In this document: positions 17,143 through 46,000 of the stretch, piece after piece
Position numbering within the stretch: position 1 is the first letter of the stretch
Layout: every line of letters begins with the position of its first letter
Source: an uncultured bacterium
GTDB taxonomy: Bacteria; Fidelibacterota; Marinisomatia; SCGC-AAA003-L08; GCA-2689995
NCBI GenBank assembly: GCA_964529325.1
Contig: CAZGWH010000006.1
Coordinates: 12,424-64,009 of the forward strand
DNA: 51,586 nucleotides
Reading direction: 5' to 3'
Program-made: the position numbers and the translations under genes
Notes under the pieces: generated by a model
Told to the model about the DNA's origin: nothing
Seen by the model: the letters and a program-made list of their open reading frames with translations, nothing else
Databases searched by the model: none

Positions 17143-18246
17143 TTATAAAATTTCCTTTAAAGCATTTATCAGCTTATCTACATTCTCTTTATGTGCAGAA
17201 TGACCCATTAGCCCAATTCGCCATATTTTTCCAGCAAACGGCCCTAAACCAGCGCCAATTTCTATTTGATATTCATTTAAAAGGGAGGTTCTTATTTTTG
17301 CATCATCTACCCCTTCTGGAATTAAAACTGAATTAAGAGATGGAAGCCGAAATTCTTTTTCAACTAAAAACTCAAGCCCTAGTTTATTTAATCCTTCTGC
17401 TAAATATAAATGAACTTCTTGGTGTCGAATTATTGTATTTTCAAGCCCCTCAATAACAACATCTGAAAGACCTTGATAAAGTGCATACATCATATTTACA
17501 GGAGCGGTATGATGATAGGCTCTTTTTTGTCCATCCCAATATTTAATTAATTCAGTCATATCTAAATACCAATTTGGGATTTGCTTTTCTCTTGCCTTCA
17601 TTTTCTGAATTGCTTTATATGAAAATGAAACAGGAGATGCTCCGGGAGGACAAGAAAGCCCTTTTTGAGAACAACTATATACAGCATCAATATTCCATTC
17701 ATCAACATTTAACTCGATTGTACCAAAACTTGTTACTGCATCTACAATATACAAAGTATCGTTTGGTATATATTTAGATATTTCTTCTACAGGGTTTCTG
17801 ATACCTGTAGAAGTTTCAGCATGAACAACAGCTACAATATCATAATTCTTTTCATTTATTTTTTTCCCAACAATATTAGGATCTGCTGGTAATCCCCAGT
17901 CAAAATTTAAAATATCAATATTTGCCCCTAACCGAGAGCACATATTTTCCATTCTCATACTAAAATAACCATTTTGAACAATGAGAACTTTATCGCCAGG
18001 ATTTACAAGATTAACAAAACAAGACTCCATCGCCGCCGAACCAGTTCCAGAAACAGCAGTGCAAAATTCATTTTCAGTTAAGAATAGAGTTTTTAACATA
18101 GATTTAATTCCATCCATAACTTCAATAAACCGAGGGTCTAAATGCCCAATAGTTGGTGTTTTAAGTGCTTCATATACGCGTGGAGATACCGAAGAAGGAC
18201 CTGGTCCCATTAATAATGTTGGTTTAATATTTTGAAGTAAATTCAT
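17143..18246 (-). CDS. Alanine-glyoxylate/serine-pyruvate aminotransferase family (class V PLP enzyme)
   Basis: LLMGPGPS, VHAETSTG, DAVTS, PLP-lysine motif SCSQKGLSCPPG, YHHTAP, WRIGLMG. Confidence 0.94.
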   Translation of the reverse strand: MNLLQNIKPTLLMGPGPSSVSPRVYEALKTPTIGHLDPRFIEVMDGIKSMLKTLFLTENEFCTAVSGTGSAAMESCFVNLVNPGDKVLIVQNGYFSMRMENMCSRLGANIDILNFDWGLPADPNIVGKKINEKNYDIVAVVHAETSTGIRNPVEEISKYIPNDTLYIVDAVTSFGTIELNVDEWNIDAVYSCSQKGLSCPPGASPVSFSYKAIQKMKAREKQIPNWYLDMTELIKYWDGQKRAYHHTAPVNMMYALYQGLSDVVIEGLENTIIRHQEVHLYLAEGLNKLGLEFLVEKEFRLPSLNSVLIPEGVDDAKIRTSLLNEYQIEIGAGLGPFAGKIWRIGLMGHSAHKENVDKLINALKEIL

Positions 18247-18280
18247 AATTATAATCTTTAGTTCGTTTTAAAATGATAAA

Positions 18281-18309
18281 TAAAAAGCCCCTTCAATAGA
18301 AGAGGCTTT
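18281..18309 (-). terminator. Intrinsic terminator after tRNA-His
   Basis: Minus-strand hairpin AAAGCCUCUUC-UAUU-GAAGGGGCUUU running into a U-rich tract. Confidence 0.8.
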
Positions 18310-18310
18310 G

Positions 18311-18385
18311 GGTGGCTGATGGGATTTGAACCCACGACAACCGGAATCACAATCCGGTGCTCTAACCAGCTGAACTACAGCCACC
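18311..18385 (-). tRNA. tRNA-His (GUG)
   Basis: Cloverleaf: G-1, acceptor GTGGCTG/CAGCCAC, D arm GTTC/GAGC, anticodon arm CCGGA-TTGTGAT-TCCGG, T arm GTGGG-TTCAAAT-CCCAT, discriminator C. Confidence 0.97.
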
Positions 18386-18450
18386 ATTAAATTTGTACTG
18401 CAACTATTGATAATTTACATCATTATAGCTGAATAGAATAAAAGGAAAGT

Positions 18451-19161
18451 TTATTCATCAACCTCTTTCAGGAATGATTCGCCATCCCATTCAAAACCTT
18501 CATAAGAAAACCCTGAAAAAGCATCAATAGTATTAATTTTATTTAGTGCAATAAAACGAATAAACTCACCTTTAACAGCTTTTCCATAATGTCCAGCTGT
18601 AACTTTTTTACCTAACTTTTTATTCAGAATCAAAAACTCAACCTCAACAACATTTACATCTTTTTTAATATATGATTTCCGATGCACTTGAGGAAGTAAA
18701 TCGATTATCAAATCTTCTTTTTTTAATATTTCAGTTAATCGGGGTTTCCAAAAATATTGAATAGAATGTACATTCATTTTAAGTTTATAATTTGGAATGA
18801 GTGTTTTGGGAGTAACGAGTCCAAATAATCCAGAAAAAATTCGAATATGATCATCCATATAGTTTCGGGCATGTTCTGGTAGTGTTTCCCAATTTATATG
18901 GTCATATACAACACCAGTGTAGCGATCAATTGCGTGGCAAACCCGACTATTAAGTGCATCTTGATTTTGACGATGAAATATTTCAGCTTTTTCTTGAGAA
19001 GTTCCATAGATAGACCTAATCTCATTATTTCCAATTAAGCTTAATAATCGAATAACCATTTTAACATCATCTATATATTCAAAATTGGTATCGCCAAATT
19101 TAATATCCATTGGCTTTTTAATATTAGCCTTACCCTCGCTAGGCGGAATTAATATTTTCAA
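18451..19161 (-). CDS. yaaA: Peroxide-stress protein YaaA (DUF328)
   Basis: MKILIPPSEGK, AIDRYTGVVY, IFSGLFGL, YKLKM, KAVKG; TTG start with GGAG upstream. Confidence 0.85.
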   Translation of the reverse strand: MKILIPPSEGKANIKKPMDIKFGDTNFEYIDDVKMVIRLLSLIGNNEIRSIYGTSQEKAEIFHRQNQDALNSRVCHAIDRYTGVVYDHINWETLPEHARNYMDDHIRIFSGLFGLVTPKTLIPNYKLKMNVHSIQYFWKPRLTEILKKEDLIIDLLPQVHRKSYIKKDVNVVEVEFLILNKKLGKKVTAGHYGKAVKGEFIRFIALNKINTIDAFSGFSYEGFEWDGESFLKEVDE

Positions 19162-40831: not shown

Positions 40832-41809
40832 ATGAACAATATTAAAAAAGTAGAAGAGTTATTCAAATTAAAATCAAACCTTGAGGCAGAGGTTGGAAAA
40901 GTAATTATTGGGCAAAAAGAAATAATTGACCAATTATTTATTGCTTTATTGTGTAAAGGACATGTAATGCTAGAGGGTGTTCCTGGGTTGGCGAAAACTT
41001 TGCTTATTAATACGCTGTCTGATGCAATGAAGTTAAATTTTAGCCGAATACAATTTACACCTGATTTAATGCCAAGTGATATTACAGGAACTGAGATTTT
41101 AGAAGAGGATTCAACCACAGGAAAACGAGTTTTTAAGTTTTTTAAAGGACCTATTTTTGGAAATATCATTCTCGCAGATGAGATAAATCGAACCCCTCCG
41201 AAAACACAAGCATCACTTTTAGAAGCAATGCAAGAACATAAAGTAACTGTAAATGGAAAAACATACATCCTCGAAGAGCCCTTTTTTGTTTTAGCAACTC
41301 AAAATCCAATTGAACAAGAAGGTACATATCCATTGCCTGAAGCACAATTAGATCGTTTTTTATTTAAATTAACGATTGATTATCCTTCAGCAGATGAAGA
41401 AGTTGATATTGTAAAATCAACAACAGGTGAAAGCCCAGAAATTGTTAACCCAATTGTAAACCAATCTCAATTAATTGAATTTCAAGAATTAATTCGTAAC
41501 ATCCCTGTGGCTGATAATGTGATTGAATATGCCGTAAATTTTGTTCGGAAAACGCGTCCAAGCGAAGGTATTATGCCAGAGTCAATTAAAAAATTATTGG
41601 ACTGGGGGGCAGGCCCAAGAGCAAGTGCAGGATTAATTTTAGCATCGAAAGCGAATGCGGTTTTAAACCAGAGAACAACGCCAGACATAGCTGATGTGCA
41701 AATGATGATAAAACCTGTTCTAAGGCACCGTATTATTCCAAATTTCAATGCTGAGTCTGAAGGTATAACAAGTGATGATATTTTAGATTTAGTATTACAG
41801 GATAAATAA
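40832..41809 (+). CDS. MoxR-family AAA+ ATPase
   Basis: GVPGLAKT, RIQFTPDLMPSD, DEINRTPPKTQ, TYPLPEAQLDRF. Confidence 0.96.
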   Translation: MNNIKKVEELFKLKSNLEAEVGKVIIGQKEIIDQLFIALLCKGHVMLEGVPGLAKTLLINTLSDAMKLNFSRIQFTPDLMPSDITGTEILEEDSTTGKRVFKFFKGPIFGNIILADEINRTPPKTQASLLEAMQEHKVTVNGKTYILEEPFFVLATQNPIEQEGTYPLPEAQLDRFLFKLTIDYPSADEEVDIVKSTTGESPEIVNPIVNQSQLIEFQELIRNIPVADNVIEYAVNFVRKTRPSEGIMPESIKKLLDWGAGPRASAGLILASKANAVLNQRTTPDIADVQMMIKPVLRHRIIPNFNAESEGITSDDILDLVLQDK

Positions 41810-41810
41810 T

Positions 41811-42698
41811 TTGTCGAGAGAATTTCTCACTCCTGAAGTTATTTCTAAAATTGATAGTTTACAATTTAGAGCAAGAATGGTTGTTGAAGGATTTATAGTT
41901 GGACATCATAAAAGTCCTTTTCATGGGTTTTCGGCTGAGTTTTCTGAACATCGAGCTTATGGAATCGGTGACGAAATTAAACATATTGATTGGAAGTTAT
42001 TCGGTAAAACAGATCGCTATTTTGTAAAACAGTTTGAGGAAGAAACAAATTTAAGAGCTCATTTATTATTAGATCAAAGTAGCTCAATGAATTATGGTTC
42101 AGGGGCATTAACTAAGTTAGAATATGCCCAAACCTTGTTTGCCTCTTTTTGTTATTTAATGCTTAAACAGCAGGATGCCGTCGGTTTAACTTTGTTTGAT
42201 ACTAAAGTCCGGAAATTTATTCCACCACGGTCAAAATCAAGTCATTTAAATGTATTAATGTCCGCATTGTCTAATATAGCTCCCGGAGGAGAAACTTCAA
42301 TTGCTCCAATTTTACATGAAATAGCTGAAAAAATTCATAAAAGAGGGCTTATTATTTTAATTTCAGATTTATTTGATGACCCACAAAAAACATTTAATGG
42401 ATTAAAACATTTTAGATATAATGGTCATGAAGTTGTCGTATTTCATATTTTAGACCCCGAAGAAATGGAATTAAATTTTAAAGAACGAATTCGATTTGTA
42501 GATAAAGAGACGGGTGAAAAAATCACAACAGACCCTTGGCATATAAAACAGGCATATAAAACAGAGATGCAAGAATTTTGTGATTATTATAAATTAAATT
42601 GTAGAAAAAATAGAATGGATTATGTTCAAGTATTTACGAATCAAAGACTTGATGAAGTCGTTGCAAATTATTTAATAAAAAGAGGTAGTTTTAGATAA
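41811..42698 (+). CDS. DUF58 / vWA-like MoxR partner
   Basis: GHHKSPFHGFSAEF, IDWK, EEETN, MIDAS-like DQSSSM, LISD. Confidence 0.92.
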   Translation: MSREFLTPEVISKIDSLQFRARMVVEGFIVGHHKSPFHGFSAEFSEHRAYGIGDEIKHIDWKLFGKTDRYFVKQFEEETNLRAHLLLDQSSSMNYGSGALTKLEYAQTLFASFCYLMLKQQDAVGLTLFDTKVRKFIPPRSKSSHLNVLMSALSNIAPGGETSIAPILHEIAEKIHKRGLIILISDLFDDPQKTFNGLKHFRYNGHEVVVFHILDPEEMELNFKERIRFVDKETGEKITTDPWHIKQAYKTEMQEFCDYYKLNCRKNRMDYVQVFTNQRLDEVVANYLIKRGSFR

Positions 42699-42762
42699 AT
42701 CGTAAAAATAAAATAAATTTTTGAAATTTTAAGATGGGGGAATTCTTAGAATTATTGAGATT

Positions 42763-42791
42763 AAGGGCAGAAATATCTGCCCTTCCTTTTT
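42763..42791 (+). terminator. Intrinsic terminator after moxR-DUF58
   Basis: Perfect 9-bp stem AAGGGCAGA-AATA-TCTGCCCTT followed by CCTTTTT. Confidence 0.75.
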
Positions 42792-42849
42792 ATATAGTCA
42801 ATTTTTTAATCTATATCACAAGTTAAATGTTTATCTATTCTTATTATTT

Positions 42850-43052
42850 GAAGGGTTTTAGACTGTAAAGTCGTTGAAGATGTTGTCCTGACTGTTTCAA
42901 ACATTGAGTGGTTGCTTTTGGGAGGGTAACTATTATGAAATAGTTAGTTGATAGTCATACTGGGAGGAAGTGTGACGCAAACCCTTCTCAAAGGTCAATA
43001 GATATGGGAAGGGTTAATTTTAAAAAGGAGTGAGTTTTCTTGCTCCTTTTTT
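42850..43052 (+). ncRNA. Putative novel structured non-coding RNA
   Basis: About 40% GC (67/166 nt over 42850-43015) in AT-rich surroundings. At least five hand-folded helices, several with G-U pairs that work only on the + strand. Ends in its own terminator; no credible ORF. Confidence 0.6.
43022..43052 (+). terminator. Intrinsic terminator, probably bidirectional (putative ncRNA / lptD)
   Basis: AAAAAGGAGTGAG-TTTT-CTTGCTCCTTTTTT pairs fully on + using two G-U pairs; on - those positions are A-C mismatches. Confidence 0.8.
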
Positions 43053-46000
43053 ATTGCCAAAAACTATTTCCACCACGAGATTCAAGCTTTATACTTTCTT
43101 TTAGATCTCGGTTGATTACATTTATTCGTAAATAAAATCCTTGTCTATAACCTGTTGGTGTCCATTCAAATAAAAACTCAAAACAATGAAGATTTCGTTT
43201 AAAAGTAAAATCATGAGAAACTAATTCTAATTTTTCTAAATCTATACGAGCATTATAATTCATTTTCCATGCTGGTGTAAGTTGAATATCTAAATTAGTA
43301 TTTACCCAAAAATTTATTAATGCATCTTGATTTTCTCGAGGCGTGTATGAATAACGAATACTAAAAGTAGAGTTCCATAAATTTTGATTACTTGATGAAA
43401 AATTATTACCCGCTCCCAATAAAGGTGAAGATTCATCTTCAATTAATTGTGATGCTGTATCTATTTCAGTCGAATTTGAAAAGATAAATCGTTTACCTGA
43501 AAACTTTAATGAGGTTCCCCCGTTAACACTTTTTAATCGAGGATATTTTTTAAATTGGTTTATTCGTTGACCATTTGAATTTAGGCCATAAAAATCATGG
43601 GACATTGTAAGGCTTAATCTTAAACCATTTGGAAGCGTAGAGCTGATGGATGAGTTTACAGGTGCTAATTTCAAACTATCTGCAGTAAAATTATAATTTG
43701 AATTTAATGACCAAGAAATTAAATCAATTTTTTTATACTCGCCTTCATTTTTTACTTTTGCTTGAAATATATTTGAAAGTCCTAACCCAATAGATTTTGA
43801 TTCAACAGAGGGTGTCGCTCCTGCAAGTGTCCCGTAAAAATAATCATGTGTTAATGCTGTATCTACAAAGGATTGAATAAACGGAGAGCCATGTTCAGAA
43901 AAGTTTGGCGACCAATTAAATGAAATAGAAGGGGTCATTACATGTCTAATAGCATCTAGTTTCCCAACTGAAATTGGAAATAACCCATAAAGTTTAGTGG
44001 ACATTGATAAAGATGTATTCCATGTAAGTCGGCGTTTAAACCCACTGATATACTCCGTTTCAAATTGCTGATTTAGTTTTGTATATTGGTTTACCCAGTT
44101 TTCTTTAAAAGAAATTCGAGGAGACAGAGAAAGCCAGCCAAAAAATTTATTAGATGTTGAAAAGCTCATATTATGCTTTATGCCTGTACGAATATTGGTG
44201 GAATCCTCCCAAAATGGATTGAATAACGAATCATTTTCTATTGAGTTATATTTCCAACCTTTTCGTATGCTATTTGTTAGATTAGAAGAATAATCCCAAT
44301 AAATATCTTTTAAAATGGGGTATTCTTTTCCTGCAATTTTTATTTTCCCCTTGCTGTGGCTAAAACTTAAATTGGGTAATGATTGTGATCTTTCAACTAA
44401 AAAATGATTATGAGAATAATCTCCTTCTAGTTTTCGTATATCAGACAGCAAATCATAACTATCAGAAATATTCATACTAAAATTATTTTTCCACGCAGAC
44501 CATCGTTTAGAATAATTTAAATGCGATTCAATTTTTTGGGTTAATTGATTTGATTTATCATTCCAATTACTTTGATAAAAATTAGAATTACTAACATATT
44601 GTGCATTAATTGATAAGTTTTGTGTTGGGTCAAGCTTTTGAGAATGATGCCAAATAATATTAAATTGTCGTGTAAAATTATCAAATAAGTCAACAACATC
44701 TTTCCCAACTAATGACTGATTAATTCGTGTGGATAGTGATCCGTTGTAATTATATCTTTTTATATAATTAAACTTACTATTGATAACCACTCCTAATTTA
44801 TCATAAAAATCAAAAAGTGTTTTTAAATCGACATATTCATTTGGAGCATAATAATAACCGAGTCGTTGGAAAAATGTCCCTGTACTTGTTCGAGTTCCAA
44901 AAGCTGGCATAATCCACCCACTATGGCGACTCCCACCTTTATTTGGAAAAACGGCAAAAGGAATACCGATTATTGGAATATCAAAAATATGGAGTATTAA
45001 AGGCTTTGCAATTACTCTGTCATCTCCTACTAATTTCATTTTATTACTTGCAAAATAATAGTGAGGGTTGTCTAATTCACACGAGGTGTATTTACTGTCT
45101 TTTACATGAAAAATATCAGGCTCATCTCTATAAATTTTTTCCCCATGATAAAAACCACTATTATACTCTGTTTTTCCTTTATTGATTTTCCCATGTTTTG
45201 AAATTAAATCAAAAGTCATATCATCACCTATGAGCGGTTCTGTTCCACCAGTATAAACCGTTGGAAGAATATCATTATATTCAATTGCATTTAGAATATT
45301 TTCCTTCCAATCTACAACAATGTTTCCAGCTTCTAACTTTGTTTCTTGATATTCTACGATTGCATTTTCGATGAGTTGTGTTTGTTTTTTATCTACAAAA
45401 TAATCTAAATAATTTGCTTTATAAGTGATGGTCGTATCAATTTTTGTATTTCCAACTTCAGGTTTAAATATGCCTTGACTTCCGCCAATTACTTGAATTC
45501 TATTTAATTCAGAATCTTGAAAAGTTAAAATAATTGTATCTCCAGAAGCTGTATTTGTCCCCATTAATAAGGAATCTTCTGATACATGATAAATTGTTTC
45601 TGCCATATTTTTAAGATGCATTTTTTTAATTTCATCATTTTCTAAATCAACAGTAATAAATTTACTTTTCATTTCATTCCTAAATTGATAAAAACGGGGA
45701 TCATTTTCTTTTATTTTACTATCAAAATCTTGCCATGCTTCTGCATTACCCGCGATATCTATATTTTGTAAAATAGAATCTTTATATTGTAGAAAAATTG
45801 CATCTCCAATTATACCTTTTTTGGGCTCTTTTACAACACCTCCATTTTTTAAAGACATTAATTCAATTTCATCATTATATAGTAAGGTATCTGTTTGAAT
45901 TATGCGATTACCTTCAATTATATTTACATTTCGATATGCTGAAAATGATATTCCTCTTGGTCCTTTTGTTTCTTTATAATGTATATAATCTGTTGAAACA

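Follow-up and report, generated by a model that had tools for sequence, protein, structure and literature searches.

What lies between two convergent genes of an uncultured marine bacterium, and is it, as the original prediction had it, a stand-alone structured RNA of about 200 nt that belongs to no known class? The stretch of DNA that we analysed (the window, 51,586 nt) comes from a member of the Marinimicrobia (SAR406), and the genome of this bacterium (G000) comprises 2.3 Mb in 118 contigs with 29.5% GC. Marinimicrobia, a group without any cultured member, abound in the dark ocean and in oxygen-minimum zones. A 2009 study reportedly dealt with small RNAs in a marine metatranscriptome. Literature searches, judged by titles and abstracts and with subscription literature outside the scope, found no paper on a regulatory RNA of Marinimicrobia (SAR406). 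The element sits in a gap of 352 nt and has the following neighbours:

40832-41809, plus strand: MoxR-type AAA ATPase gene
41811-42698, plus strand: DUF58/VWA gene, directly after the MoxR gene
ending at 43051, minus strand: LptD-family gene (1,124 aa), stop codon 43051-53

The GC content of the element is 0.39-0.40 compared with 0.295 genome-wide, in agreement with the earlier estimate of about 40% in AT-rich surroundings. Open reading frames of at least 40 aa are absent both from the element region and from the plus strand downstream of it, up to the LptD gene. Coding as small peptides was rejected, since the window has other ATG-led frames of 3-9 codons than L037, a homologue from a metagenome. 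What follows is the LptD stop codon on the minus strand (43051), so the element is not a 5′ leader or riboswitch of a following gene, as the original prediction had recognised. BLAST and the covariance model each found one match in the 2.3-Mb genome. This single copy ruled out a MITE- or REP-type repeat, for which many genomic copies would be expected.

The folding energy of the plus strand of 42850-42987 was -47.4 kcal/mol, whereas 200 dinucleotide shuffles gave -28.85 ± 3.21 kcal/mol (z -5.78), and none of the 200 was as good. The reverse complement reached -26.6 kcal/mol (z -2.86), a value equalled by 2/200 shuffles. The plus strand, which had been proposed because of the many G-U pairs, was thus borne out. 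A fold scan of the whole window used 140-nt windows with a step of 35 on both strands (n=2,940), with the energy regressed on GC. The two most extreme of the 2,940 windows were + 42911-43050 and + 42876-43015, both above the tRNA locus, which ranks next. The top 15 of the scan includes several 140-nt windows around this tRNA gene (18311-18384, minus strand); GC-corrected examples from the region 17777-18900 are - 17777-17916, - 18442-18581 and + 18761-18900.

The minimum-free-energy fold of 42850-42987 (plus strand) reproduced every helix that had been drawn by hand (P1 to P4). One further hairpin, P5, was absent from that drawing. The structural features are:

42850-42858, plus strand: G-rich segment at the 5′ end (GAAGGGUUU), which supplies the 5′ strand of P1 and is probably unpaired in the complete transcript
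42850-58 with 42979-87, plus strand: P1, in the fold of the isolated 138-mer
42861-64 with 42869-72 (42861-42872), plus strand: P2 hairpin with the loop GUAA, in the fold of the window, not conserved
42884-42953, plus strand: P3, a long two-part hairpin with UGGGAG in its loop region
42888-99 with 42936-47, extended by 42884-87 with 42950-53, plus strand: lower stem of P3
42907-18 with 42923-34, plus strand: apical stem of P3
42954-61 with 42969-76 (42954-42976), plus strand: P4 hairpin, 8 bp, loop GGGAGGA
42980-90 with 43005-15 (42980-43015), plus strand: P5 hairpin, 11 bp, the rival of P1 for CCCUUC
43022-51 (element 43022-43052), both strands: terminator hairpin, 13 bp, between an A run and a T run

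P1 and P5 compete for the same bases. The strand AAACCCUUC (42979-87) can pair either with the 5′ end or with a downstream copy of the G-rich motif (GAAGGG), and the latter pairing gives P5. Full-length folds of the window, of the related genome G001 and of L037 all contained P5, both in the minimum-energy and in the centroid structure. In the window the CCC bases paired downstream with a probability of 0.999 and with the 5′ end (P1) with a probability of 0.001. The advantage of P5 over P1 amounted to 5.2 kcal/mol (window) and 4.1 kcal/mol (G001), and a forced alternative fold of L037 did not form P1. The P5 stem is untouched in G001, where its loop holds 6/9 substitutions, and one of its pairs is changed from A-U to U-A in L037 and in G002, a second related genome. 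Seven of the nine P1 pairs are invariant, and P1 shows no covariation. On the evidence of these folds, the multibranch junction closed by P1, as it was originally drawn, is probably not the mature form. The predicted architecture is most likely simpler: a row of hairpins consisting of P3, P4, P5 and the terminator.

Comparison with known RNA families was negative. With Rfam 15 at gathering thresholds, the only match in the whole window was the tRNA at 18311-18384. A permissive scan of 42650-43120 gave six matches of 11.6-19.9 bits, far below threshold and mostly to terminator hairpins, and the homologues L037 and L038 yielded terminator matches only. Judged by the lack of Rfam matches, the element appears to belong to no described family. 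SRP RNA, RNase P RNA and tmRNA were rejected as candidates, as they had been originally, because above-threshold copies of all three lie elsewhere in the genome (C23:11424-11521, 64.6 bits; C2:56664-57002, 265.1 bits; C48:1716-2072, 188 bits).

The element resembles 6S RNA in its similar length and in being non-coding, and the 6S RNA of G000 itself is unaccounted for. The 6S model (RF00013) found no match at E up to 1 in G000, a genome rated 100% complete, but in the control it recovered 6S RNA in only 5/14 known genomes and may be blind here. In the region of the element there was no match to this model at E up to 10. Where 6S RNA forms a long rod with a central bubble, the element forms either a hairpin row or a junction. 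6S RNA, moreover, is widely retained among relatives, but none of 71 other genomes of the order has the element. On these comparisons the element is a poor 6S candidate.

The range of the element is narrow. BLAST over 61 related genomes detected the full element in G001 only (96% identity), and in G002 the terminator only. Model R1 found it in 3/3 species of the genus (g1) and gave no credible match in the 71 other genomes of the order, where two matches had E values of 0.12 and 0.25. Model R2, applied to a 151-genome sample of the phylum, found G000 only, plus one match at E 0.078. The weak model matches (G072, G028 and G138; 21-24 bits, E 0.08-0.25 per genome) were taken as chance. Among 80 metagenome loci fetched via the DUF58 protein, three carried the element: L036 is of the G001 type, L038 is of the G002 type, and L037 represents a new lineage (88 bits). 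A set of 80 genome loci added only the records of G001 and G002. Phage and plasmid collections held no match to the element. In viral collections the exact pattern was found in no contig and a looser pattern in four; these four had model scores of 14-17 bits or no model match, and were taken as chance. The homologue search that the original prediction called for yielded G001, G002 and L037; the homologues are confined to genus g1 and one contig.

Wherever it occurs, the element directly follows the DUF58 gene, on the same strand. The contig L039 encodes a DUF58 protein 72% identical to that of the window and has the same DUF58-LptD gene order, but its two stop codons are only about 45 nt apart (L039:2385-2440), and no structured element lies between them. 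The G002 copy has a GC content of 0.21, a fold z of 0.03 and 15/47 broken pairs, and we read it as decaying. The DUF58 genes of G002, the third species of the genus, and of L037 are equally distant from that of the window (78% in both cases). Because L039 does without the element, the RNA is dispensable and either young or in the process of loss. Judged by its distribution, the element was gained recently by a small clade or is disappearing from it.

Base pairs were compared in a sequence-based MAFFT alignment (A5, not fitted to the structure), which covered 47 pairs of P3, P4 and P5. There were four distinct homologue sequences, two of them nearly identical, a number too small for formal covariation statistics. 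Compared with the window, G001 has nine substitutions at aligned positions: none in the 94 paired columns and nine in the 80 unpaired ones. L037 has 26 substitutions in paired columns, yet 41/46 scorable pairs are kept, 16 of them through changes. Among the 47 pairs of L037, 25 are unchanged, 12 are kept with one side changed, four are kept with both sides changed, five are broken and one is gapped. Over all homologues 89.1% of the cells are paired, compared with 39-54% when the partners were slid by 1-3 columns. Both sides are changed in eight pairs, a number equalled in 4/500 shuffles (four sequences).

The individual helices differ in this respect. P3 has 93.8% paired cells in its lower stem and 84.8% in its apical stem, with changes on both sides. 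In P4, 93.5% of the cells are paired and 3/8 pairs change on both sides across the homologues; its loop retains GGAGG in L037. Folded alone, the L037 core, only 70% identical to that of the window, gave the same P3/P4 architecture (z -3.76 on the plus strand, -0.85 on the minus strand). The only three core substitutions of G001 all fall in P2 and break it, and the GNRA hairpin of the original drawing is not part of the conserved structure. Within the 5′ G-rich segment, AGGGTTTTA is unchanged in 4/4 homologues. The comparison supports P3, P4 and P5, and the substitution patterns respect P3 and P4. Few as the four sequences are, their pattern is clear and indicates that selection maintains the structure.

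Conservation also extends upstream of the folded core, and three further features had to be considered there:

42763-42784, plus strand: the first hairpin, terminator-like, which follows the DUF58 gene and was scored in the scan with 9 pairs plus a T run
42805-42820, no strand assigned: conserved upstream box TTTAATCTATATCACA, a candidate regulator site or promoter element, present in 4/4 homologues
42842-42847, plus strand: putative -10-like hexamer TATTAT, 29.5 nt after the centre of the box

In the segment following the DUF58 stop codon (42699-42800) identity to the window is 70% in G001, 35% in L037 and 30% in G002, and the DNA between the DUF58 stop codon and the box is unalignable in the latter two. 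Identity in the box region (42801-42849) is 100% (49/49), 68% and 72%, and in the core (42850-42987) 98%, 70% and 56%, respectively. The conserved unit starts about 45 nt before the RNA, which is more in keeping with a separate promoter than with a simple 3′ UTR. At the place of the hexamer L037 has TATATT and G002 has TAATTT, so that all lineages share TAnnnT.

In class II CRP/FNR promoters the palindromic regulator site is centred about 41.5 nt before the start. By analogy, this geometry would place the start near 42854, an estimate to which we give little weight. The box has two mismatches to either of the E. coli palindromes (CRP-type or FNR-type), a likeness that is not significant alone and lies within chance. 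The genome encodes two regulators of the CRP/FNR family (C2 and C1 loci). By reading, neither protein has the N-terminal cysteine cluster typical of oxygen-sensing FNR. Searching the genome with the FNR-type consensus at up to two mismatches gave 5,268 sites without intergenic enrichment (share of 0.10, compared with 0.11 of the genome). With the CRP-type consensus at one mismatch the intergenic share was 0.15, a slight enrichment only, and the element's own box was unique in the genome. No regulon definition emerged from these CRP/FNR-type site searches.

A simple scan for a plus-strand promoter upstream of the element found none. By eye, there was no convincing upstream match to the Bacteroidetes-type -33/-7 or the sigma-70 -35 motifs, and no motif shared by the upstream regions of the SRP RNA, RNase P RNA, tmRNA and 31 tRNA genes. 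The tRNA genes, identified by ARAGORN, include one for tRNA-SeC (contig C24), which hints at selenocysteine use. In the 70 nt upstream of the tmRNA gene (contig C48) we noticed by eye a stretch like the conserved box, offset by one base, possibly a chance likeness in AT-rich DNA.

The original prediction described the RNA as insulated by two terminators. The first hairpin (42763-84) was the only one of the two flagged by a simple terminator scan, which did not flag the second (43022-51). In G001 its 3′ arm carries two substitutions and a deletion, and L037 and G002 have no counterpart. As far as these sequences indicate, it is particular to the G000 genome, and the claim of insulation on both sides did not survive. 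The 3′ hairpin is conserved (29/29 in G001, 77% in L037, 72% in G002). The predicted hairpin and its U run are present, but the hairpin overlaps the LptD stop codon and lies between runs of A and T, which makes it a bidirectional terminator common to both convergent genes and not a private one.

The explanation that we favour, and whose chances we put at about even, is an independent, lineage-restricted, terminator-ended gene for a trans-acting sRNA of about 200 nt, extending roughly from 42854 to 43056 on the plus strand. The sRNA would be transcribed from its own promoter, presumably including the conserved box at 42805-42820, and transcription would end at the bidirectional terminator that it has in common with the convergent LptD gene. 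The mature RNA would most likely have a free, invariant 5′ segment (GGGUUUUA) ahead of the hairpin row P3, P4, P5 and terminator. It would most likely act in trans as a regulatory RNA and would expose conserved purine-rich elements at its 5′ end, in the UGGGAG loop and in the GGAGGA loop. The RNA structure as such is real, conserved and strand-specific. What stands of the original proposal of a structured RNA of no known class is the fold, the strand, the lack of an Rfam match and of a downstream gene, and the hairpins P3 and P4; the P1 junction, P2 and the first terminator did not hold up.

Other explanations have to be weighed against an independent sRNA gene. The element could be a 3′-UTR element of the moxR-DUF58 operon, reached by read-through from DUF58, which protects the 3′ end of the mRNA or yields a 3′-UTR-derived sRNA without a promoter of its own. 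Its invariable position directly after DUF58, on the same strand, would agree with this, and so would the lack of a terminator hairpin between DUF58 and the element in L037 and G002 and the damage to this hairpin in G001. In the window, however, an intact terminator-like hairpin precedes the element; the box 30-45 nt before the RNA is conserved, although the DNA between the DUF58 stop codon and the box is unalignable among the lineages; and L039 manages without the element. We regard a 3′-UTR element as possible but on the unlikely side. Distinctly unlikely, in our view, is a young insertion without function, a structured remnant, for example of a mobile or foreign element, which is drifting and has decayed in one species. 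The substitution pattern is not expected under drift: all nine G001 substitutions avoid the 94 paired columns and L037 keeps 41/46 pairs. The element is, moreover, single-copy and has no phage, plasmid or viral match. An insertion would explain the very narrow range (genus g1 and one contig), the absence from the same site of L039, the G002 copy without a fold and the difference between the GC content of the element (0.39) and that of the genome (0.295).

We give very little credence to two more specific functions. The RNA could be a protein-binding decoy such as a CsrA sponge like CsrB/RsmZ. In the window as well as in L037 the loops of P3 and P4 contain purine motifs with GGA, and the genome has a CsrA gene, but there are two such loop motifs only, no Rfam family of the CsrB/Rsm type matches, and csrA lies in a flagellin-fliW-csrA cluster. 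In Bacillus subtilis it is the FliW protein, and not RNAs, that antagonises FliW-linked CsrA. The RNA could also be a conformational switch, with CCCUUC pairing by turns in P1, which closes the junction and sequesters the 5′ end, and in P5, the state being set by a ligand, a protein or temperature. All three partners are conserved (5′ AGGGUUUU, CCCUUCU and 3′ GAAGGG), and P1, transcribed first, forms in the truncated RNA, whereas P5 wins at equilibrium. Since P1 precedes P5 in transcription, it could form transiently, or the RNA could toggle between the two, and the invariant 5′ AGGGUUUUA would then be alternately hidden and free. Against a switch stand the lack of a known aptamer match and of a downstream gene to control, the lack of covariation in P1, seven of whose nine pairs never vary, and the failure of P1 to appear in the forced alternative fold of L037. 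The likeness to riboswitches and attenuators consists in the mutually exclusive helices P1 and P5 before a terminator; the differences are that the element has no same-strand gene downstream, that its terminator stem lies outside the alternative pairing, and that no aptamer family matches.

The independent sRNA gene has its closest known parallels among trans-acting sRNAs. Like E. coli FnrS, CyaR and Spot 42, regulator-dependent RNAs with an intrinsic terminator, the element falls within a size range of about 100-250 nt and has a stand-alone position between convergent genes. With trans-acting sRNAs in general it has in common several hairpins followed by a hairpin and a U run, a short conserved upstream box at roughly class II activator distance, rapid sequence turnover and a narrow taxonomic range. 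It differs from FnrS, CyaR and Spot 42 in that neither sequence nor covariance model shows a match, and its candidate regulator site is without statistical support. No Hfq gene was found in the genome. The GGA-bearing hairpin loops recall the CsrB/RsmZ-type sponges in a genome with a CsrA gene, but the element has two GGA loops only, CsrA is FliW-linked, and there is no family match. A ParA/MinD-like ATPase gene follows the flagellin-fliW-csrA cluster (L196:74-1746, G000 contig C44), and this arrangement implies a CsrA of the flagellar partner-switch type.

Simple searches for targets of the putative sRNA gave no signal. Complements of the 5′ segment and of the loop motifs were not enriched at -40 to +20 of 1,840 crude ORF starts (4 compared with 3.3 expected, 1 with 2.7, 4 with 10.1 and 1 with 12.4). 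Duplex energies of the 5′ segment, of both loops and of the whole RNA were calculated against 1,993 crude ORF starts; the neighbours lptD, moxR, DUF58 and an mgsA-like gene were unremarkable, the best rank being 252/1,993. Among sequencing runs, none recorded as RNA contains the stretch, and the element was met once: X1, a library labelled metatranscriptomic but judged to be probably DNA, contained one 248-nt contig (42728-42976) with G001-type variants and neither flank, whereas three RNA runs gave nothing. If the X1 contig, whose nature is uncertain, were RNA, it would span both the first hairpin and the inferred start, and a start upstream of 42728 would become likelier than one at 42854. 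If the sRNA were validated together with a recognisable regulator site, it would offer a first point of access to post-transcriptional control in the phylum, and a probe that can be tracked in metatranscriptomes.

A broader idea goes beyond the single element. The site after moxR-DUF58 could be a conserved 'small RNA slot' in Marinimicrobia, where a CRP-family regulator drives a fast-evolving riboregulator, with the P1/P5 toggle of the invariant 5′ end in the g1 genus. We consider this idea speculative and improbable. In at least two clades the slot may contain a CRP-like box followed, some 30 nt from the centre of the box, by a -10-like hexamer, then RNA bodies unrelated in sequence, and a terminator. 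CRP-like sites were counted in 53 of the 80 metagenome loci (L036-L090 minus L083, and minus L044, which was too short; L091-L115 were left out), taking the best site within 250 nt after DUF58. A site with up to two mismatches was present in 10/53 loci, compared with 1/53 in the coding control; three of these ten loci carry the element, and seven belong to a sister clade. If the slot reading is true, the uncultured SAR406 group would have its first defined regulatory RNA circuit. The element itself is a modest hairpin array, found in one genus and on one contig and dispensable in close relatives, and the general lesson would be limited unless the idea of a slot holds.

In the sister clade, whose DUF58 proteins are 62-65% identical to that of the window, DUF58 is followed by a different RNA-like unit of about 100 nt (L040:2368-2525; also L041, L042, L043, L044, L047, L049 and L067). 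This unit gave no above-threshold match in Rfam, and may be a positional analogue of the element. It consists, in this order, of a CRP-like box at the stop codon, TAnnnT about 30 nt after the centre of the box, an invariant stretch of about 20 nt containing GGAGAUGCGGU, a hairpin and a terminator. The hairpin shows apparent both-side changes between lineages.
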